Notes under the pieces: generated by a model
What the model saw: the letters and a program-made list of their open reading frames with translations, nothing else
Databases searched by the model: none
Told to the model about the DNA's origin: nothing
Assembly (NCBI GenBank): GCA_963844245.1
Contig: CAWJNJ010000005.1
Location: forward strand, 882,388 to 946,387
Source of the DNA: an uncultured Acidobacteriota bacterium
Lineage (GTDB): Bacteria > Acidobacteriota > Vicinamibacteria > Vicinamibacterales > 2-12-FULL-66-21
Direction of reading: 5' to 3'
DNA length: 64,000 bases
In this document: piece after piece, positions 1,573-40,776 of the stretch
How positions within the stretch are numbered: position 1 is the stretch's first letter
Layout of the letters: every line of letters starts with the position of its first letter
Position numbers and translations under genes: made by a program

Positions 1573-2499
1573 CTAAGGCGCGGCTTCCCGCTTGCGCCAA
1601 TACCTGGCCAGGCCCTGCCACGAATAATCCAGACGTCCGGCCCGTCCGTATTTTTCCGACTCCTGTATTCCCACCGCGCGACGCAACTCGTGCAGCCCTT
1701 CTTCGACGAAAGCCGCCTGGCGTTGCTCCTCGCTCAGGCTTGCGTCGGCAATCAACCTGCGGACGATCCGGCTCCACGACTCGATGTTTTCGCGCAGTTG
1801 CTGGAACTGCAGGCGGGCGCCGTGGAAGGGACCGAAGTGGGTCAGGAACAGCGTGTCGGGATCCCACGCCAGGATGCGGTCCTCGCTCTCACGCCATCGT
1901 TCCAGATCGATGTCCGGCGGCGGCGTCGGCGGCATCACGTAGGGCGGCTGGCGTCGGATTCCGGCCGTGTCGCCGACAAAGGCCACGCGGCTCGCCCGGT
2001 CGAAGTAGCTGACATGATGCGATGCGTGGCCCGGCGTGTAGGCGACGTCGATCTCCCGGCCCACGATCGAGAGCGTCTCCCCGCCCCGAAGCGAACGCAG
2101 ATTCGCCGCCGGCACCGGAAGGAACTCGCCCCACAGCCGCGCCATGTCGGCTTCCCCGTAGAGACGGGTCGCGCTGGCGATCAACTTCGCGGGATCGATC
2201 ATGTGCCCGGCGCCCCGCTCGTGGACGATGACCTCGATGGACGGGTTCTCGCGGACCAGGGTGCCCGCGACGCCGGCATGATCCAGGTGGATGTGCGTCA
2301 GCAGTAGCTGCGTGACGTCGGCGACCTTGATCCCTCTCTGCGCGAGCGACGCGCGCAGCGAGTCAATCGTCGTCGATGGCCCTGGATCGATCAGCGCAAC
2401 GCCGCCGGCACCCTGCAGCACAGCCGTCGCGATGATCTCTGGCGTGCCAAGGAAGTTCAGGTCGACGTAGTCGAGTCCCGCCGCAAGTGACCGGATCAT
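1573..2499 (-). CDS. MBL-fold metallo-hydrolase
   Basis: 308-aa ORF with the HxHxDH motif (THIHLDHAG) and downstream His/Asp ligands. Confidence 0.8.
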   Translation of the reverse strand: MIRSLAAGLDYVDLNFLGTPEIIATAVLQGAGGVALIDPGPSTTIDSLRASLAQRGIKVADVTQLLLTHIHLDHAGVAGTLVRENPSIEVIVHERGAGHMIDPAKLIASATRLYGEADMARLWGEFLPVPAANLRSLRGGETLSIVGREIDVAYTPGHASHHVSYFDRASRVAFVGDTAGIRRQPPYVMPPTPPPDIDLERWRESEDRILAWDPDTLFLTHFGPFHGARLQFQQLRENIESWSRIVRRLIADASLSEEQRQAAFVEEGLHELRRAVGIQESEKYGRAGRLDYSWQGLARYWRKREAAP

Positions 2500-2562
2500 G
2501 GGTTGCGCGGCATGTTATCCCAGCCGCCGGGCGTCCTTGACTTGGTAGAATCGAAGAACACG

Positions 2563-2877
2563 ATGAGCGATACCGAAAGGCAGACTGGCGGGGAGGTCCT
2601 CGAGCGCGAAAAACAGCAAACCAAGCGGCCGGAGCTGTTCAAGGTGCTGCTCCTGAACGACGACTACACGACAATGGATTTCGTGGTCGAGGTGCTCGAG
2701 TCGATCTTCAATAAGCAGCCGGCCGAGGCGTTTCGCATCATGATGATGGTTCACACGCAGGGGAAGGGGCTCTGCGGTGTGTATCCGCACGAGATTGCCG
2801 AGACGAAGGTCGAGGCAGTCATCACAAGCGCCCGTGAGCACGGCTTCCCCCTGAAAGCCGCGATGGAGCCCGAATAA
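2563..2877 (+). CDS. clpS: ATP-dependent Clp protease adaptor ClpS
   Basis: ClpS core LLNDDYTTMDFVVEVL...FRIMMMVHTQGKG. ATG at 2563 gives a typical 104-aa product; the ORF track starts at an upstream TTG at 2503. Immediately precedes clpA. Confidence 0.9.
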   Translation: MSDTERQTGGEVLEREKQQTKRPELFKVLLLNDDYTTMDFVVEVLESIFNKQPAEAFRIMMMVHTQGKGLCGVYPHEIAETKVEAVITSAREHGFPLKAAMEPE

Positions 2878-5207
<2,330 letters not shown>

Positions 5208-5211
<4 letters not shown>

Positions 5212-5777
5212 CCGACGAGAACATCAAGGTTGTCGATCGCCGCTGGTGGGCGCAGGATCCAGGCGAGCAGCGCGAAGACACCCGTGGCTCAGGCAAGCCG
5301 ACCTACCTCGAGGACCTCGAGAAGCAGCTCGCTGAGAAGGACAAACAGATCGCCGAGTACCTCGCGAAGTACCGCGGCGCGGCCGCAGAGTTCGAAGAGG
5401 CGCGGCTGCGGCTGCGGCGTGAGATCTCAAAGGATACCGAGCGCTCACGCCGGGAGATCCTCGCGGATCTGCTCGACGTTGTCGACAACCTGGATCGCGC
5501 CATGGCATCAGCCCGCGCGGGTGGGTCGCTCGAGTCGCTCGTGGAGGGCGTCGAGATGGTCCGCCGCCAGTTCCTCGCCAAGCTCGAAGGGTTCGGCGTC
5601 AAACGGATCGACGTGGACCACCAGCGTTTCGATCCGGCGCTCCACGAAGCCATCAGCAGCGTCCCGGCCGCGACACCCGACCAGGACGGCATGGTTGTCG
5701 GCACCGTTCGCACCGGCTATCGCATCGGCGATGATGTGCTGAGACCGGCCGCGGTAGCGGTGGCGAAGCACGAATAA
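5208..5777 (+). CDS. grpE: nucleotide exchange factor GrpE
   Basis: 189 aa. Charged coiled-coil N-terminus followed by the GrpE C-terminal domain (DPALHEAISSVP...VGTVRTGYRIGDDVLRPAAVAV). The ATG overlaps the clpA TGA (ATGA). Confidence 0.9.
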
Positions 5778-5864
5778 GCTCTCAGCTCTCAGCTTTCAGC
5801 TTTCAGTTACCGAGCTGACTACGCTCGTTTTGGCTGAGAACTGACAGCTGATAGCTGATAGCTA
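5778..5864. repeat. AGCT+N3 heptad hairpin filling the gap between two convergent stop codons
   Basis: Left arm is agct-ctc-agct-ctc-agct-ttc-agct-ttc-agtt. Right arm is ggct-gag-aact-gac-agct-gat-agct-gat-agct. The arms are complementary except for one spacer base per unit. The element starts right after the grpE TAA and ends in the CTA (reverse TAG) of the next gene. Confidence 0.75.
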
Positions 5865-6551
5865 TTTCAGGATCCCCTTCGGTACCTTCCACTCGTACAG
5901 CTCCGGCTTCATCCGGCCGGCTTTGACCATCGGGTCCGCTGACGCTCGCTCCATCGCCTCGGCCATCGTCGACACGCGGTAGCCGATCAGGCCGCGTCGG
6001 TGCCCGGCCTTGACGAGTGGGCCCGCGAGCACGAGTTTGCCGATCTTGGCCTGTGCCTCCATGTGACCCAGGTGGCCGGTCATGAGTTGCTTCTGCTCCT
6101 CGGGAGTTACGGCCGCGGTGTTCGCGCCGGTCACGAGAAAGCCGAAGTAGATCGTCTCGGTCTCCGTAACGCTCGATGGCTTCTGGAACCAGCCTTCCGG
6201 ACCCATCCACTGCAGAACCTCCACGGCGTAGCGGCCCTCCTTCACGCCGGGATCCGCTTCCGCGATCGCCTTCGCGTCTTCCGGTGTGCCGTTGAGGATG
6301 TAGAACCCCTGAGACTTGTTATCGCCGGCGAATGACCCACCAATCAACGCCCGCCCGGACCGGAGGAGCTCGGCGAGATACGCGCGATGCGCCTGCGCAC
6401 CCGGATTGTCACTGGGAGACCAGTCCGGGCCGATGCCCACCAGGACCGCCTGGTAGGTCGTCATCTTGTACTCGTCGATCTTCGGCTTCTCCTGGGCTGG
6501 CGTGGCAGCTACAAGCATCAGAAGCGCGAAAGCCGTTATCAACCGACTCAT
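5862..6551 (-). CDS. secreted protein with two tandem YciI-like domains
   Basis: Signal peptide MSRLITAFALLMLVAATPAQ followed by two YciI-type modules (...AEADPGVKEGRYAVEVLQW... and ...ASADPMVKAGRMKPELYEW...). Confidence 0.65.
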   Translation of the reverse strand: MSRLITAFALLMLVAATPAQEKPKIDEYKMTTYQAVLVGIGPDWSPSDNPGAQAHRAYLAELLRSGRALIGGSFAGDNKSQGFYILNGTPEDAKAIAEADPGVKEGRYAVEVLQWMGPEGWFQKPSSVTETETIYFGFLVTGANTAAVTPEEQKQLMTGHLGHMEAQAKIGKLVLAGPLVKAGHRRGLIGYRVSTMAEAMERASADPMVKAGRMKPELYEWKVPKGILK

Positions 6552-29557: not shown

Positions 29558-32404
29558 TCATTTCACTGGACCCAGGTAGGTGTCGAACCAGTTGAGGATT
29601 TCGCGGTAGAACTCGCGCATGTCGCTCGGCACATGACCGCCGGCGAGGCGGGCGAGACGCTTACGATCCGGCGGTGTGCCGAGCAGCTCGAGAAACCGCC
29701 GCTGGTCGTGCTCGGGCACGTTGAAGTCATCGCGGCCGTTGACCAGCAGCACCGGGATCTTGATTCGCGGCATGAAGTTCGCCGTCTGAATCTCGGGGAC
29801 GGTGTTGTATCGAAGGCCGCCGGCGGCGAAGACTGCCGTTTTGATCCGTGGTTCGAGGGCGACAGGAATCGGACCGACGAACGCACCGTGACTCATGCCG
29901 TAGTAGCCAAGTCGCGTTTTGTCGATATCGGGCCTGGTCTCGAGGTAGTCGACTGCGCGAAAGAAGTCCTTCGCGTACAGCACGAACCGGTCTCGCACCG
30001 CGCGCTGGCCCGGAGGCTCAGGCTTCCGCCGCTCGAACGTGCCGAAGTAAACCGGGTACAACACCGCCCGCCCGCTGCGCACGATGAAGTCGAACGACAT
30101 GAGATCGAGGTAGGTGCTGGAAGATACCTCGCGCGCGTGGGAGTTCGGGAAGTACACCACGGTTTGGTACGGGGGTTTGACGTGCTTCGGGATGAAGAGG
30201 TACGCGGGAATACGCTCGCCGCCGTAGGCAGCGGCGAAGCTGACGGTTTCCATCCTCCAGTGCTGCGGCGTGTCGTCGGATGCTTCCACCTTCGCATCGA
30301 GCGGATTGCGGTCGTACGCGTAAAACCCCCGTAGCAACTCGAACTGCTCGTCGGAGACGGGCACGAGGCTCTGCGGATCCCCTTCGACGCGAGCGATGGG
30401 TTTCGAGAGGTCGGTGGTGGCGACGCCGCTCTTCGCCTCCTTGATCAGGCGCATCCCGAACGTAACCGCCCTCGCCCACGGATCGCGCGCCTCCGGCTCG
30501 CGGAAGCGATACGTCGGGTCGTTCCAGCCGCCGCCAAGGATGTAGCGGAGCCCGGTCGTGCCGGATTCGTTGAGGGACCACTCCTGGATGTTCCCTGCCA
30601 TGTCGTAGCGTGCCCCACGGACCGACACTCTGGCGCGCACCGACTTTGGCCGGTCCCTTCGCATCGAACTGGCTCACCCGCAGGACGTCGGAGAAGATGT
30701 CGTCCATGCCGGACGCGGCCCGCCAGTGATAGAACGTCGGCAGCGACTTGCCGGCAAACCGGGCGTAGGCCGCGGCTTCGAACCAGCTGATGCCGCCGAC
30801 GGGATAGTCTTCCTGGCCTTCGGGATAACTTCCGAGCTCCCACGTCGCCGGCCCGCTGCGTCCGGTCCTGTCACGCAGCCGATCCATCGCCTGTTCAAAC
30901 GAGACTGAAGAGCTGCCGTCGCGCGGCAGCTCTGCCCAGTACTTCGCGTCGGTGTATCCGCCGGCCTCGACGAACTTCTTGAACTCGCGATTGGTGACTT
31001 CGTACTTGTCGATCCAGTAGTCGGCAAGCTGCACGGTCCCGGCGACGCCGACGAGTAACCGGTCCGCCGGGCACGAACATCATGCCCGGCACTGCGTCCG
31101 CCTCCGGCACCAATCTCGAGTGTCGGGCGCCCAACCGAGTAGGTCACGTCCATCGGCAGGTAGCCGGGCTTCGAGACGCGGAGCCGGTAGAGCGCGAGGG
31201 GCAGATGGTGATCCCGGACGGGCGTGGTACCCAGTGACTCCCACGCGCCATCCTCATCGACGTAGTCCCGGACCGAAACCTCGGCCCCGGCGGGATCGGT
31301 GGCGGTGTCGAACGGAAACCACGCGGCGCGGATCCGCGCGACGTCCTCGGTGGCGTAAGGCTCAACTTGCCTGGCGAGCCGAACCGCCTGGAGCGACTGC
31401 TCGGTGTGCTGGAGCCGCTCAATTTCCGGAATGGTTTCGCGCTGCGCCAGTCGCGCGCGTCGTATGTTTACAGTCTGCCAGGCACCGAAGCCCGCGGCTG
31501 CCAGCAGCAGCAGCGCCATCGGGAACGAGCACGGCCGGGCGGCGCCACGCTGACTCCTCCGGACGGTTGAGCCGAGCCAGCGCCGCGGCGAGATCCGCAC
31601 GCATCGCGCCGGCGTCGGGGTAGCGGTCTTTGGGGTCCTTCGCCAGCGCCCTCGTGACGATCGCGTCCACGTCGGCCGGCGCGTCGGCGCGCGCCGCTGC
31701 GCAGAGGGGCTGGCGGGTCGCGAAGGATCGCGGTCACGAGCCCGCGTCCGACGAGCCCGGCAAACGGCCGGCGCCCTGTCAGCATCTCGTAGAGCACGCC
31801 GCCGAGCGAGAAGACATCAGACCACGCGCCGACGCGCTCACCCTGCGCCTGCTCCGGCGACATGTACGCCGGCGTGCCCATCACCGCGCCGGGCCGGGTC
31901 GCGAGCGCGGTGAGGGTTGCGTCCGAGGCGGCCCGCTCGACCAGCTTCGCCAGCCCGAAGTCGAGCACCTTCACCCTGCCGTCGCGCGTGACCACGATGT
32001 TCGCCGGCTTGATGTCGCGATGCACGATTCCGCTCGCGTGCGCCGCCTCGAGCGCCGCCGCCGACTGCACGCGCGTAGTCGAGCGCGGTGGCGACAGGCA
32101 TCGGCGCCCCGGCAATCAGCCGGTCGAGCGGCGTCCCGTCGACCAGCTCCATCGCGATGAACGTGGTGCCGTTGTCGCTGCCAATCTCGTAGATCGTGAC
32201 GATGTTCGGATGGTTGAGGGCCGAGGCGGAGCGGGCCTCCTGGACGAAACGCTGGTGCCGCTCGGGATCGGCAGTCGCATCCGGCGGCAAGACCTTGATG
32301 GCGACCGCACGTCCAAGCTTCGGGTCGAGAGCCCGATACACGATGCCCATCCCGCCGCGCCCGAGCTCCGCCTCGACGCGGTAGTGAGAGATCTGCTCAA
32401 TCAT
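29558..32404 (-). pseudogene. Ser/Thr protein kinase - TM - FGE/SUMF1-like - alpha/beta-hydrolase fusion gene broken by six +1 frame breaks (pseudogene or assembly error)
   Basis: Seven consecutive ORF pieces join end to end. They are: kinase subdomains ([41 protein letters not shown]); a TM helix (ALLLLAAAGFGAW); an FGE-sulfatase domain (GMMFVPGGP...YWIDKYEVTNREF...YDMAGNIQEW); and a C-terminal dienelactone/S9-like hydrolase (GYYGMSHGA...VNGRDD). Junctions lie near 32075, 31700, 31550, 31120, 31055 and 30610. Confidence 0.75.
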
Positions 32405-34986: not shown

Positions 34987-35502
34987 ATGCAACTTCGTTA
35001 TTCAGTAGCCGCCAGTCTGGACGGGTATATCGCGGGACCGAACGGCGAGTACGACTGGATCCTGATCGATCCGGAGATCGATTTTGCGGCGATGTACGCG
35101 GGCTTTGGCGGGATCGTCATGGGCCGCCGGTCGTACGAGGTTTTTGCCGAAACGGGCGGCGCTCCGGGCCCGGCGCTCCCGACCTACGTGTACTCGACCA
35201 CCCTGCCGGAGGGTCAACGCGACGGCGTCACGTTCGTCCGGGATGCCGTGACGCACGTCCGCACGCTGAAAGCGAGTGGCGAAGGTAAGCCGCTCTGGCT
35301 CTGGGGCGGCGGCGAGCTGTTCCGGCAACTCGCAGCGGCCGGCCTGGTGGACGGTGTCGAAGTCGCCGTCATCCCGATCATTCTCGGCGGGGGCCTGCCG
35401 CTGATCGCCGAACCGGGCCCACGGCTGCGGCTGCAATTGCGCGCGCATCGCGTCTACAAGACCACCGGCACGCTCTTCCTCGAGTACGACATCGTGGCTT
35501 GA
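34987..35502 (+). CDS. dihydrofolate reductase family protein (RibD C-terminal domain)
   Basis: MQLRYSVAASLDGYIAGPNGEYDWI...GGGELF...; 171 aa. Confidence 0.8.
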   Translation: MQLRYSVAASLDGYIAGPNGEYDWILIDPEIDFAAMYAGFGGIVMGRRSYEVFAETGGAPGPALPTYVYSTTLPEGQRDGVTFVRDAVTHVRTLKASGEGKPLWLWGGGELFRQLAAAGLVDGVEVAVIPIILGGGLPLIAEPGPRLRLQLRAHRVYKTTGTLFLEYDIVA

Positions 35503-35570
35503 AGCACCTGGCCGTTGCGCGATGAGGGGTTAGCCTTGCGCTTGGTCCAGCGCGGCAGTATGGTCCACAG

Positions 35571-36275
35571 ATGCGACAACTGCTTCTGGTCCTCGCGCTC
35601 CTACTGATCCCCACCGGCTCCTGGGCTCAGAACCGATCCGAAGACGAGTACACACGCTACGAGCTGCTCGCGCCTGAGTCGTCCTCATTCAAGATCATCT
35701 ACGACGTGACCGCTGTCACTCCTGGAGCGGCCTTCTACTTCAACCCGATTCGCAAAGGCAGCGTCGCCAGCGATGAATCGGTGATCGACCTCGCGAGTGG
35801 GCAGCCGCTGAAGTTCGAGCAGGTATCAGGCGCGGACGCACGGAAGGCCGGCCTGGCCAACGCCGACCTCGAAGGCGAGTACATCAAGGTGACGCTGGCG
35901 CGCCCGGTGCCGCAGGGCGGCGAGGCGCGGATTCGGATCATCAAGACCTACCAGGATCCGAAGAGCTATTTCCGCCAGGGCGATCTCATCGTGTTCGACC
36001 GTCCGCTCGGGATCAAACGCAACGCCGTCGTCCTCCCTCCAGCCTACGAGTTGATCGCGTGCAACGTGCCGTCGCAGATCCTCGAGGAGCCCGACGGACG
36101 CGTCGGCATCAGCTTCATGAACACGTCGCCGGCGCAGGCACCGCTCGTGCTGCGCGCGCGCCCGGCCACCGCGCCGGAGTCAACGCCACCCGCAACCGCG
36201 CCGCCCGCAACGCCACCAGCCACGCCTGCTGTTCCAGCAGCGGCGCCGCGGCACCCGCGCGCGACGTGCCTATGA
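35571..36275 (+). CDS. hypothetical secreted protein (paralogous domain, copy 1) with Pro/Ala/Thr-rich tail
   Basis: Signal peptide MRQLLLVLALLLIPTGSWAQ. The domain ends ...DGRVGISFMN and is followed by ATAPESTPPATAPPATPPATPAVPAAA. Confidence 0.55.
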   Translation: MRQLLLVLALLLIPTGSWAQNRSEDEYTRYELLAPESSSFKIIYDVTAVTPGAAFYFNPIRKGSVASDESVIDLASGQPLKFEQVSGADARKAGLANADLEGEYIKVTLARPVPQGGEARIRIIKTYQDPKSYFRQGDLIVFDRPLGIKRNAVVLPPAYELIACNVPSQILEEPDGRVGISFMNTSPAQAPLVLRARPATAPESTPPATAPPATPPATPAVPAAAPRHPRATCL

Positions 36276-36853
36276 ACCGTATCCGCGTGAGTGAGCGCGC
36301 CTTTCAGGATCGGGAGATCGTCTACTTCTTGAAGGAGCCTTCCACGCATTCCTTCAGCCTCTATCACGACTACACCGAGAGCCGCGAAGGGACCGACAAG
36401 TATCTGAACGTCGTTCGCGTCGGCAGCACCGTCTCGGATCCATCGGCGAAGAACCTCGACACCGGGGAAGCTCTGAAGGTCGAGACGCTGAAGGGTGAGG
36501 CGATCACGAAAGCCGGGATCGACATCGGCGAGCCGGTGGCGCCCAGCTCTGAGGTCGTCGTGATCAGGTTCCCGCCGGTGAAGAAGGGCCAGTCGGTCCG
36601 GCTGCGAATCGAGGAAACCTACACGGATCCCGCCCGCTATGCGCTCATCGACGGAGTGCTGCTGTGGAACCGGAACTTCGGCCGTCCACGCAACGACGTC
36701 GTCCTCCCGGCCGGATGGCGCGTGACGACGAGCTCGATTCCAGCGACGGTGTCATTGACTGAGGACGGACGGGTCCGCCTGGCGTTCGTCAATCCGCGGC
36801 CGGATTCGATCGACGTGTTCATCAAGGCACGGCCGTCCGCGGCGCCACGCTAA
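36272..36853 (+). CDS. hypothetical protein (paralogous domain, copy 2), or the second half of a fused two-domain protein
   Basis: The ATG overlaps the upstream TGA (ATGA). The sequence aligns along its length with copy 1 (SF..Y.D.T, KAG, R.RI..TY.DP..Y, RN.VVLP, DGRV..F.N). No signal peptide of its own. Confidence 0.5.
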   Translation: MNRIRVSERAFQDREIVYFLKEPSTHSFSLYHDYTESREGTDKYLNVVRVGSTVSDPSAKNLDTGEALKVETLKGEAITKAGIDIGEPVAPSSEVVVIRFPPVKKGQSVRLRIEETYTDPARYALIDGVLLWNRNFGRPRNDVVLPAGWRVTTSSIPATVSLTEDGRVRLAFVNPRPDSIDVFIKARPSAAPR

Positions 36854-36882
36854 CAGACGCACCGGCCCTGCAGCCCCCGTTT

Positions 36883-36926
36883 GTCGTGGTAGCCCCGCTT
36901 CGTCGTGGTAGCCCCGCTTCGTCGTG
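36883..36926 (+). repeat. 19-bp tandem repeat (2.3 copies)
   Basis: gtcgtggtagccccgcttc appears twice, followed by a partial gtcgtg, just downstream of the 36853 stop. Confidence 0.8.
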
Positions 36927-36949
36927 AGAACGCTCCCCACCGGACGCGC

Positions 36950-37197
36950 CGGCGCCACATCGGCCTCGCGTCGCCTCGGCCTACGCCCGGAAAAACGACG
37001 CTCCGTCGTGTGCCTCACGATGCGGCGTCGGCTGGGGCTGGCCGAGCTTCAGTGATGATCAGGGTCGGCCTCCGGCTACTTCGTGCGCCGGCGGCGAAAG
37101 ACCGCCGCCGCCGACCGAAACGTCTCCGCGTCGTTTTTCGATCTTACGCAGCGGGCTGTCCGCATCGCGACGCGAGCCCGACATGGCGCCGCCGCTG
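36950..37197 (+). repeat. ~250-bp repeat, copy 1 of an inverted pair
   Basis: Aligns with the reverse complement of 37505-37747. A shared run tcgcctcggcctacgcccg, the block gccgagcttcagtga, and a perfect 23-mer cgcagcgggctgtccgcatcgcg are all present. Confidence 0.8.
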
Positions 37198-37504
37198 ATG
37201 TCCGCTGGTCGGACTCAAGACCCTGCGGACGAGGGCATGGCTCATGACTCGAAAAGCAAAGGGCTTATCAACCGCTCCTGCCTTTGCAGTTAGCCGATGG
37301 GAGCGCAGCGAGATCCTCGACCAGTCTTCCAAATGTGATTTCGTCCGCCAGCGGGCGCACCCGTCGCTAGTCCCGATTGCTGCTCCGTCGTACTGCCGCA
37401 ACGTCGACTAGAGATGTCAGGCTTGCTCTGGTAGCTGCTGTTGCGTTCGCCGCATCCTGACTCTTGCGACTTGCGCACAACTGCCGTCATCGCGCCAAAC
37501 TACT

Positions 37505-37747
37505 GCGCCAGCGGCATGCCGGTCCGGCGGCGCGATGCGGACAGCCCGCTGCGACAGGTCGAAAAACGGTGAGCAGGCGTTCCGATCGGCGGAGGCAGTG
37601 TTTCGCCACCGGCGTGAGGAGCGGCCTGGCGCCGACCCTGATCGTTCACTGAAGCTCGGCAAACCCAAGCCGACGCCGCGTCGTGAGGCACGCGCCGGAG
37701 CATCGGTTTTCTCGGGCGTAGGCCGAGGCGACGAGCCGGCGTGGCAC
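37505..37747 (-). repeat. ~250-bp repeat, copy 2 of the inverted pair
   Basis: Reverse complement matches 36950-37197. By eye, identity is high over the first ~105 nt and lower afterwards, with conserved blocks. Confidence 0.8.
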
Positions 37748-37796
37748 TGGCGCAGTGGTCTGGCGCGATCCGTTGACGCCCGACCTCGAGGTCGAG

Positions 37797-38201
37797 CTAT
37801 TTGGCCGACGTCGTCTTGGTCGCGCGCTCGCGCTTTTGCTTCTCCACCATCGCGGCCACGTCGGCGAGCAGCTGCTTCGCGTCGTAGACGATCCCCTCCT
37901 TGATCGTGTATTTGATGCCGCCGACGCGCTCGACCTTGCCGGTGGTGTCGTTCATCTTCACGTGTCCGTTGCCGTAGAGGACCTTGAAGTGCGCCGGTCA
38001 ATCCCTCCCTTGGCTGCGCCTGGCCTTCACGCGGCTGCGCCTGGGCGGGAGACCTGTCCGGGCTGTGCCGGCGCCGGCGTGGCCGAAGACGGCGTTGTCG
38101 GCGCTGCCTGCTGCGCGGCGATGTAGCTGCCGACGCCGTATGCAGAGAAAGACCACGGCAAACATGAGCGCAAACACGCATTTGACGATTCTGGAACGCA
38201 T
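37797..38201 (-). pseudogene. remnant of an exported amidohydrolase (signal peptide plus last ~70 codons only)
   Basis: ATG at 38201 gives MRSRIVKCVFALMFAVVFLC, with an in-frame TGA at 37998-38000. The same frame then reads FKVLYGNGHVKMNDTTGKVERVGGIKYTIKEGIVYDAKQLLADVAAMVEKQK, which from memory matches amidohydrolase-family C-termini. The ~350-aa catalytic core is absent. Confidence 0.4.
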
Positions 38202-38284
38202 GATCGGGCTCGGCGTTGTCTCAGCGCCTCACCCGATCGTCGCGGACCGTGGTCGGTCCCACCGCGACAGACTGGGCGCTGGCT

Positions 38285-40776
38285 CTACTCGTCGCGCAGG
38301 GCCACCATCGGGTCCATCCGCGATGCGCGCAGCGCGGGCAATCCGCAGGCAATTGCCGAGATGACCAGGAATGCCCCCGCCATGGCGGCGAAGGTCAGCG
38401 GGTCGGTCGGTGCGACACCGACGAGCATCGACTTCATCGCGCTCGTCAGCAGCAGTGCCGCGACGATCCCGATGCCGATCCCGATGCCACTCAGGCGCAG
38501 GCCCTGGACCACCATCATCTTGAAGATGCCGCCGCGGGCGGCGCCGAACGCCATCCGCACGCCGATCTCCGGCGTCCGCTGGCGCACCGTTGTCGAGAGG
38601 ACGCTGTAAAGGTCCGACCGCCGCGAGGACGAGCGCCACACCGGCAAAGATGCCGATCAGGACGAGCGCGAACTTTGTCTGTGCCTGCGCTTCGGCGATG
38701 AAGGCAGACATCGGCTGGACCTCGATCGCGCCGGTTCGCGGATTCAGTTCACTGACCAGCGCCTTTACCGTCGAGGCATGCGCCATCGGGTCGCCGGACG
38801 TCCTCACCACCCAGCGGTTGGCAGCGCCGAAGCCGAAGTAGCCGTCGGTCAGGAACATCGCTTCGCGGCCGTCCCTGGCGAGGTCCGTGTGCCGCTGGTG
38901 ATCGACGACGCCGATCACCTCGTAACGCTGCGGCTCGGGAGTGTTCACGCGCGCGACGATGGTCTTACCGACCGCGCTCTGCCCGGGGAACGCCTTCCCG
39001 GCCAGGATCCTGTCGATGATCAGAAGGCGCGAGTTCTGCCGGTTGTTGTCTTCTTCCGTGTAACCACGTCCTTCAATAATGCGCGTGCGCATGGCTTCGA
39101 AGTAACCCGGCTGAACCACGTGCGTTGTCGCCTGCTGAAACTTCGCCGGGTCGGCCAGCGCCTCCTCGGTGCCCCACCGTGCCAGCCCCACCCGTCCGTC
39201 GAGCGGCAGCGGCGTTGCGGCGGTGACGTCGGTGACACCAGGGAGGGCGAGCAGGCGCGTGCGCAGGTCACGCACGAACGCCTGGCGCGCCGCCGGGGTC
39301 GGCAGCCGCAGGTTCGGCGTCGAGAACGTGAGGACCTGGTTCGGATCGTAGCCGGGCGCGGCCCGCTGCAGTTCGATGAAGCTCCGGATCATCAGCCCCG
39401 ACCCGACCAGCAGCACGAACGACAGCGCGACTTCCAGGGTGACGACTGCCGTCCGCATCCAGCCGCCGGACGCGAGGCCGCCGCTGCGGCCGGACCGGCG
39501 CAGCAGGTCCATGACATCCGGGCGCGAGGCGCGGACCGCCGGCACCAGTCCAAACAGGACGACCGACACCACGCCCGCGAGCGCGGCGAATGTGACAACG
39601 GCCGGATCAACCGATACCTGGCCGAGGCGCGGAAGGTTTTCCGGCCCGAGCGCCAGCAGGACCCGTACGCCGGCCCATGCGAACGCGAGCCCGAGGCCAG
39701 CTGCGGCAATCGACAGCAGCAGGCTCTCGGTCAGGAGCTGTTGCACCAGCCGGCCGCGTGTCCCGCCGAGCGCGGCCCGCACCGCGAGCTCGCGTTCACG
39801 CGTTGCCGCCCGCACCAGGAGCAGGTTGGCAACGTTCGCGCACGCAATCAGGAGCACGAACGTGACCGCTCCCATGAGCGCCATGATGATCGGCCGCACT
39901 TCGCGCACGAGGTCCTCGTGCATCGGCTCGATCCGGAAGTTCATCCCGGAGGTCTGCTTGATGGTGAACCGCGACCGCAGGTCGGCCGCGAGCGTGTCGA
40001 CTTCACGCTGCGCCGACGCGAAGTGTCGCACCGTCCTTCAGGCGTCCGACGACGCGAAGGAACACGTCGTTGCGAGATCCAGTCGAGAAGTCGATGGCCA
40101 GCGGCGTCCAGACGTCCGGTGCGCGCTGCACGTTGATGCCCGGCGGATACAGCAATTCGAATCCGGGCTCGAGCACACCGATGACTTCGAAGGGCTGATC
40201 GCCGAGACGGACGACCTTCCCGACAACACTGGCGTCGGCGCCGAACCGCCGCTGCCAGAACTGGTAGCTCAGGATCGTGCGCGGCGGGTTCTGGGGCGGC
40301 GGTGGACCGTCTGCCTGCACACCCTCGGGCTGGGGCGGCGGCGGCGTTCCGTCGGCATCGACGAAGTCGGAACCCATCGCCATGCGGGCGCCGAGCACCC
40401 GGAACAGGTTCGGTGTTGCGCCGCCAGTCGTCACCGGCTCGGCATCGGCCTGTCCGGGCGTCACAAACACCTGGCGGCCGGTGACCAGGCCGGCCAGGCC
40501 CGAAAACTGGGTCGACGTCGTCCGCAAATCGTGGAAGTCGGGTCCGGGCCAGGGGAAATCTTCGACTTTGCGGGCGCGCAGGTCGTTGGCGACGTGAACC
40601 AGGCGCTCAGGATCGGCGTACGGCAGAGGCTTGAGCAGCACGGCGTTCATGACACTGAAGATCGCCGCCGCCGCGCCGATGCCAAGGGCAAGCGTCAGGA
40701 TCGCCGTGAGCGCAAAGGCCGGCTTCTTGACGAACATTCGAACGGCGTAGCCGACGTCGGTGGCGATGGATCTCAT
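38285..40776 (-). CDS. ADOP-family duplicated MacB/FtsX-type permease; two frame breaks
   Basis: N-terminus [53 protein letters not shown] and C-terminus ALRASRMDPMVALRDE. Junctions near 40025 and near 38620. Confidence 0.85.

Follow-up and report, generated by a model that had tools for sequence, protein, structure and literature searches.

What are two ~250-bp sequences that lie in inverted orientation between two convergent genes: a structured RNA, a mobile element, or the trace of a local accident? The pair in question lies in a 64-kb stretch of Acidobacteriota DNA (hereafter the window), for which the first-pass annotation had offered a candidate structured element, a MITE-like element or a rearrangement scar. 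Acidobacteriota are among the most abundant soil bacteria, and to our knowledge their non-coding DNA is almost unexplored. We show that both arms, which stand head-to-head, belong to a dispersed repeat family with a strand-specific fold, conservation in place and recent copying. This much is secure; how the family spreads and what its resident copies do is considered in the Discussion.

Results

The window holds an inverted pair of one unit

The inverted repeat was borne out by both a repeat search of the window and an alignment. The search returned three collinear pairs of inverted arms, 37057-37195/37505-37643 (139 nt, 78% identity), 36990-37055/37646-37711 (66 nt, 88%) and 36969-36996/37706-37733 (28 nt, 93%). 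A MAFFT alignment of copy 1 with the reverse complement of copy 2, flanks included, gave a mean column identity of 84%, and over 36950-37197 the copies agree in 198 of 250 columns (79%), with one 3-nt and two 1-nt indels between them. The two units are hence 79-84% identical and are separated by a spacer of 299 bp. Their bounds in Table 1 come from the covariance model and are slightly wider than those first proposed. The description of the first ~105 nt as near-identical was overstated, since this part is 82% identical compared with 77% in the remainder. Three sequence blocks quoted as conserved were exact, and each occurs only at these two sites in the 64-kb window; for the 23-mer among them, shuffled sequences give an expectation of 0, and a perfect run of this length is by itself unsurprising at ~80% identity.

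Using cmsearch, unit 1 scored 254.8 bits with model R1 and 227.9 bits with model R2 on the minus strand (reverse shadow 11 bits), and unit 2 scored 224.2 bits (R1) and 199.3 bits on the plus strand (R2). Unit 1 forms 51 of the 52 modelled pairs. Unit 2, which looks mildly degraded, forms 43 and has a 3-nt deletion in the closing helix P1. Neither scans with the quoted blocks nor cmsearch found further units in the 64-kb window, which has these two only; a 13-bit match at 30680-30803 was dismissed as chance and sits within a coding gene. Protein coding by the units was also rejected, as their ORFs (97, 67, 43 and 33 aa) show no conservation, are rich in Arg and are read in different frames in the two copies.

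The spacer had been described as lower in GC and without a convincing ORF, and both points hold (60% GC as against ~69% in the units, and no conserved ORF). No sigma-70-like promoter sites were found in it either. The best explanation is that this 299-bp spacer is not a functional part.

Table 1. Features of the inverted pair and its surroundings (window coordinates).
Feature	Coordinates	Strand	Basis and remarks
Unit 1	36945-37200	-	Folding strand minus (37200 to 36945); 3' end faces the stop of the plus-strand gene ending at 36853
Unit 2	37500-37754	+	Folding strand plus; 3' end faces the stop (37797) of the minus-strand amidohydrolase remnant
Spacer	37201-37499		Separates the 5' ends (heads) of the two units; not conserved; lower GC
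Two-domain secreted protein gene, 3' half	36270-36853	+	ORF; stop 92 nt from unit 1
Gutted amidohydrolase gene	37797-38201	-	ORF; signal peptide and last ~65 codons left; stop 43 nt from unit 2
Small REP-like palindrome CCCGACCTCGAGGTCG	37776-37797		Sequence; between stop codon and unit 2
19-bp tandem repeat, ~3 copies	36872-36928		Repeat search; between the stop at 36853 and unit 1
P1 outer arm, unit 1	36946-36974		Pairs with 37167-37195; inverted repeat of 29 nt, 86%
P1 inner arm, unit 1	37167-37195		Repeat search and family covariation
P2a arm GCCCG, unit 1	36985-36989		Pairs with CGGGC at 37152-37156
P2b arm GAAAAACGACGC, unit 1	36990-37001		Pairs with GCGTCGTTTTTC at 37128-37139
3' partners of P2b and P2a with conserved block CGCAGCGGGCTGTCCGCATCGCG (37147-37169), unit 1	37128-37169		Pair statistics, block scan
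Conserved 23-mer block, unit 2	37531-37553		Exact match to the unit 1 block

Genes and small repeats beside the pair

The plus-strand neighbour encodes a two-domain secreted protein whose homologues, more than 100 of them, are single proteins of 385-410 aa without a Pfam domain. In the window, two adjacent paralogous ORFs occupy 35571-36853, and these are most likely one gene broken by a frameshift. Many other genes of the window are also frame-broken, which suggests indel errors of a long-read MAG or real decay. The minus-strand neighbour is an amidohydrolase gene from which ~1.3 kb is absent, corresponding to 1904-3221 of the metagenome locus L017, where the orthologue is intact (563 aa; L017:1723-3414). 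Compared with the window, a metagenome contig (run X2) has an extra C after each of 38051 and 38060 and lacks 30 nt at 38069.

Short tandem duplications are found on both sides of the pair, a 19-bp one (~3 copies; Table 1) and a 21-bp one at 38003-38044 (2 copies). Small GC-rich REP-like palindromes, of the GCCCGACCTnnAGGTCGGGC and CTTCCGGCTTnAGCCGGAAG types, are found repeatedly in the gap from stop codon to large unit, in the window as well as in L022, L026, L047 and L021, and GCCCGACCT..AGGTCGGGC hairpins resembling the palindrome at 37776-37797 adjoin units in L022 and L026. These small palindromes look like separate short repeat families of the same organisms.

A dispersed family in soil Acidobacteriota

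A 21-mer of one conserved block, searched against species-representative genomes, gave one meaningful locus, L001 in an Acidobacteriota MAG, with three related units in 8 kb, two of which form an inverted pair ~305 bp apart. A degenerate motif from the other block matched 70 metagenome contigs from soil, rhizosphere and sediment. With nhmmer we obtained 93 matches and with the covariance model (cmsearch) 71 strong matches, the units being mutually 55-100% identical. The unit of ~255-290 nt therefore has ~70 occurrences across one Acidobacteriota MAG and 70 soil-metagenome contigs, as solos or doublets. The metagenome carriers point to Acidobacteriota because of the types of neighbouring genes, which include ADOP-type MacB/FtsX permeases and CarboxypepD_reg/TonB-type barrels, and because of the named homologues of a flanking protein. 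The genes beside the units are functionally unrelated and ordinary housekeeping genes, with 134 Pfam families in 110 ORFs.

Scans against Rfam 15 with cmscan returned nothing relevant at E<=10 for 35500-39500 of the window (E-value mode) and nothing at E<=1 for 31 kb from 11 loci with ~15 units. Our literature search on Acidobacteria RNA motifs or repeats, and on the conserved 12-mers of the family, found nothing relevant, and the repeat family is apparently undescribed so far. A phage origin was rejected after scanning viral contigs for both conserved blocks, which gave 0 and 2 stray matches. Four 13-kb loci of relatives (L085-L088) carry no units; they do not qualify as empty sites, since the two-domain protein orthologues there have a different gene order. 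In L085 a group II intron reverse transcriptase gene (RVT_1 and GIIM; 4536-5894) lies between an ADOP permease gene and the two-domain protein orthologue. A sequencing-run search for the window pair and for the doublet of locus L081 returned no RNA runs among its matches, and no presence/absence polymorphism (empty sites) was seen in metagenome DNA runs, the coverage being very thin.

The unit has a covarying fold with conserved loops

In order to define the fold, helices were located from pair statistics alone, without energy prediction. Five strongly covarying helices were found, namely P1, P2a, P2b, P3a and P3b. In a plain MAFFT alignment of 61 units, which was not fitted to any structure, 95.4% of cells are paired, compared with 80.0% for column shuffles (0 of 500 reach 95.4%) and 36-49% for slid partners, and 37 of the 52 modelled pairs show compensatory changes. 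The closing helix P1 comprises 28 bp, and up to ~45 bp in some copies; its sequence varies freely while the pairing is kept, with compensatory changes in 24 of 28 pairs and 93.3% of cells paired. The corresponding values are 99.7% of cells and 3 compensatory pairs for P2a, and 97.4% and 7 for P2b.

P2a (GCCCG/CGGGC) joins two of the blocks that had been noted as conserved. The pairing of GAAAAACG with CGTTTTTC that had been read within each copy is real, and it covaries throughout the family as P2b (consensus GAAAAAYGNNNN/NNNNCRUUUUUC). The proposal of a structured element is thus strongly supported by a family of ~70 units with massive covariation. The outcome that would have made the pair just a local inverted duplication, a unit occurring only here and without covariation, is contradicted by dozens of loci and by helices that covary.

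On the folding strand the conserved unpaired blocks are CGCGAUGCGGNCAGC, UUCGCC, ACCC and GUAGGCCGAGGCG. The invariance of block 1 is a product of locus retrieval, because this block was the search bait; block 2 and the other unpaired blocks were not bait for the metagenome loci, yet they are conserved family-wide. The central ~80 nt of the unit are variable and differ between subtypes, and some units have an optional 30-nt hairpin. One unit (L039:1415-1771) has an extra hairpin-rich insertion of ~95 nt inside the central domain, which looks like a small element nested in a large one.

Selection acts on the fold of the antisense strand

The first-pass annotation had likened each copy, lying in sense orientation past the stop of its neighbour, to a long 3'-UTR element. 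We restricted the strand call to helices found independently of energy prediction. The inner helices, whose signal favours the sense strand, were left out because the argument would be circular, these helices having been predicted on that strand. In the robust helices, wobble intermediates number 115 G·U against 37 A·C when read on the strand opposite to the supposed sense strand, which implies that the folding strand is antisense to the adjacent gene. Furthermore, folding energies (MFE) favour the antisense strand in 46 of 62 units (p=2e-4), with means of -155 kcal/mol for antisense and -151 kcal/mol for sense. Hence selection maintains the fold on one strand, the one antisense to the gene next to it. 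The geometry of the earlier proposal stands, as the units begin 92 and 43 nt past the neighbouring stops and 2-150 nt is typical of the family, whereas the wobble statistics and folding energies place the selected fold on the other strand. Given folding strands of minus for unit 1 and plus for unit 2, the window units are head-to-head, each facing the stop of its neighbour.

Placement and polarity across the family

Where a unit faces a neighbouring gene, it meets a stop codon in 35 cases, 27 of them within 150 nt, and a start codon in 19, by gene calls made with a crude GC3 filter. Units are usually 2-150 nt past a stop codon, and some lie between divergent genes. Among 16 adjacent unit pairs, 13 are head-to-head, three tandem and none tail-to-tail (p=4e-6 against one quarter), in counts that include related loci and are not fully independent. 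The gap between doublet partners is 39-883 nt in nhmmer coordinates, and in L061 the model matches are only 3 nt apart. Spacer lengths are similar in the window (299), L001 (303) and L023 (270); a conserved core was nevertheless rejected, the spacers of six doublets being unrelated in sequence. Strong hairpins are frequent in the gap that separates the stop codon from the unit's 3' end. No hairpin with a U-tract terminator was found at unit ends, and the aligned flanks upstream of the 5' ends have no motif in common, in a phylum whose promoter rules are poorly known.

The pair is conserved in place

The metagenome locus L017 is syntenic with this part of the window. It contains, in order, the intact 563-aa amidohydrolase gene, a unit, a spacer with an IS1595-like fragment, a truncated unit and the convergent two-domain protein gene, of which the orthologous C-terminus is present. 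Unit 2 is orthologous to L017:3500-3793 (86% identity), and the L017 unit forms 51 of the 52 modelled pairs. Between the two loci, units are 86-91% identical and coding flanks 87-92%, and the stop-to-unit gaps and the spacer are mostly unalignable. Since the pair is present in both loci, with units conserved amid unalignable DNA, the pair is ancestral, and it is the units rather than their surroundings that are under constraint. On this comparison of sequences, resident copies are conserved to the degree of coding DNA, in contrast to the non-coding DNA around them, which decays. The L017 spacer carries a C-terminal fragment of a transposase (4415-4684), called IS1595-like from reading the sequence rather than from a family search, which truncates the second unit to model positions 2-87.

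Recent copying of whole doublets and IS insertions

A head-to-head doublet of ~630 bp, made up of unit a, a junction of extended P1 arms and unit b, recurs at unrelated loci in the contigs of one study. Among L081, L064 and L048 unit a is 95-97% and unit b 90-92% identical; the doublet in L065 is 87-91% identical, and in L052 unit a alone is visible. At these four to five loci the doublet is sharply bounded, flank identity is that of random sequence (26-53%) and the preceding genes differ (EEP-family, NUDIX, alpha/beta hydrolase, Mo-oxidoreductase, DUF885 and TamB). As the whole doublet is near-identical behind different genes, what is duplicated, in that lineage at least, is the doublet as one piece. 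At the doublet boundaries in L081, L065 and L064, which are known within a few nt, we found no direct repeat of >=3 nt that could be a target-site duplication, and the copied doublets have no tip sequence in common at their outer ends.

In L032 (556-2410) a unit is split at model position ~211-215, in a conserved block, by a 1.6-kb insertion that contains an IS110-family transposase gene (DEDD_Tnp_IS110 and Transposase_20). Transposase_20 occurs in two of the 110 neighbouring ORFs, the one identified being that of L032. No autonomous relative or transposase partner was seen among the 110 ORFs.

Discussion

How the family spreads and why it stays

The reading that we favour, and to which we give an even chance, is that of a very large REPIN/BIME-like element, spread as a folded single strand by a separately encoded enzyme and tolerated or co-opted at the 3' ends of genes. 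The single strand would be either ssDNA or a read-through transcript. An enzyme encoded elsewhere would recognise the fold and propagate it, with the conserved loops as its handle and with helices that need only pair, and copies would build up and remain at the 3' ends of genes. Polymerases that enter the adjacent gene from its 3' end produce the folding strand, so resident copies may be boundary or terminator structures against convergent read-through, and such a barrier role is plausible. Several points count against the REPIN-like reading. No mobilising enzyme came to light. The unit is ~10 times larger and far more intricate than any REP, and its closing hairpin P1 is variable, unlike REP stems, which within one genome are conserved. 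Conserved loops with covarying helices are the classic signature of a functional RNA, and the purifying selection in place suggests a host function rather than selfish DNA.

The same signature is what a genuine family of structured non-coding RNAs would leave, transcribed from the antisense strand towards the 3' end of the adjacent gene, with dispersal being secondary. We consider this, the main rival, possible but hold it only tentatively. Such an RNA would act in cis, by ending or processing convergent or antisense transcripts or by pairing with the 3' end of the neighbour, or alternatively in trans with a protein partner. The covarying helices, the conserved unpaired blocks, the strand-specific G·U wobble, the non-palindromic multi-helix architecture and the coding-level conservation at the orthologous locus are all in its favour, and the strong hairpins between the stop and the 3' end of the unit could be shared bidirectional terminators. 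It is at odds with the lack of a conserved promoter upstream of the 5' end and of a U-tract terminator, and with the absence of RNA runs having the sequence. Some doublet partners are 39-100 nt apart (3 nt in L061) with a GC-rich junction, which leaves little room for two promoters, and sRNA genes are not usually so numerous, nor copied so recently as whole doublets. A bolder proposal, which we regard as unlikely, is that the family represents structured RNAs of a new, large class (~255 nt), in which the RNA itself is the active agent. The scaffold might be transcribed towards the adjacent gene, its variable 3' flank pairing with or terminating the convergent transcripts of the neighbour, or the RNA might be the intermediate or handle of a non-autonomous, RNA-mediated bacterial mobile element. 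The data are compatible with it: loops are conserved, helices covary freely, G·U pairs keep to one strand, and units are conserved between orthologous loci.

If instead the sense strand mattered, the unit would be a 3'-UTR element, an mRNA stabiliser or terminator co-transcribed with the upstream gene. Most units do begin 2-150 nt past a co-oriented stop, often too near for a separate promoter, and since Watson-Crick pairs predominate, the sense RNA folds well too. However, on that strand the wobble intermediates become A·C mismatches at about three times the number of G·U, the unit end has no hairpin-plus-U-tract terminator, 19 units are beside gene starts, and some units lie between divergent genes; we judge this reading improbable. 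Still less probable is a composite MITE or foldback transposon with ~250-bp arms as terminal inverted repeats and the 299-bp spacer as its core. The MITE-like label was right in that the family is dispersed and a head-to-head doublet of inverted arms was copied whole to unrelated loci in one lineage, and the spacers in the window, L001 and L023 are alike in length. It fails in that spacers range over 39-883 nt without common sequence, that of the window being unrelated to those of other doublets, that true solo units are common, and that each arm closes on itself, its tips being the most variable part rather than conserved TIRs, without any target-site duplication. A one-off local inverted duplication or rearrangement scar tied to the decay of the amidohydrolase gene has practically no chance of being correct. 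It would account for the gutted neighbouring gene and for the small tandem duplications on both sides, but it is refuted by the wide distribution of the family and by L017, where the same doublet is present at the orthologous locus beside an intact amidohydrolase gene.

Comparison with known repeats and RNAs

The REP, BIME and REPIN elements of Proteobacteria are simple hairpins of 20-40 nt mobilised by RAYT, an IS200-like HUH Y1 transposase. Like these, the family is extragenic, occurs mainly at the 3' ends of genes and takes its fold as a single strand. As in REPINs, inverted doublets of fixed polarity (13 head-to-head, three tandem and no tail-to-tail pairs) behave as the unit of spread and leave no target duplication, and as in REPs there is long-term persistence, with conserved copies and interruption by an IS110-family insertion (L032). 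It differs from REPs in its unit of ~255-290 nt with at least five helices, conserved loops and a branched fold, and in a closing stem that varies freely, the REP stem being a conserved recognition site. In addition, no GTAG/CGTC tag stands out in the family alignment, no RAYT or similar partner was recognised, and the host phylum is a different one.

ERIC/IRU, BOX, Correia/NEMIS and RPE repeats are essentially one long hairpin of 100-160 bp. The family shares with them its dispersal as transcribable, imperfectly palindromic intergenic repeats whose fold is maintained by compensatory changes, but its ~200-nt core is branched, non-palindromic and closed by a long helix, with a clear strand asymmetry. 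MITEs and foldback elements likewise code for no protein and exist in many copies, some recent and nearly identical at unrelated sites, and they too have doublets of inverted arms; unlike them, the family has no conserved TIR tips and no TSD, solo arms are common, and no related autonomous element was seen.

HEARO/IscB omega-RNA, TnpB omega-RNA and IS110 bridge RNA occur in many copies per genome. They resemble the family in being 150-300 nt long with covarying helices, conserved junctions and a scaffold beside a variable flank. In contrast to them, the units have no Rfam match and no IscB, TnpB or recombinase gene beside them, and the IS110-family gene of L032 sits in an insertion that splits the unit, not in a position flanking it as for a bridge RNA.

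Whichever reading holds, the family is a clean and well-supported large conserved fold in dozens of soil metagenomes that is absent from Rfam. Should it be REPIN-like, that class would extend to units ten times larger and would imply an enzyme that reads a complex folded strand. Should it be an RNA, it would form a new class of large ncRNA, set at gene ends in a fixed geometry. In practical terms, the units interrupt assemblies made from short reads, and IS elements insert into them (IS110-family in L032, IS1595-like in L017), and model R2 is usable for annotating them. The repeat may be a landing pad for the IS110 family. Short repeats of the CAACACGG type are found at the end of the L032 insertion, and similar GGTTCAACAC repeats abut the unit in L035.
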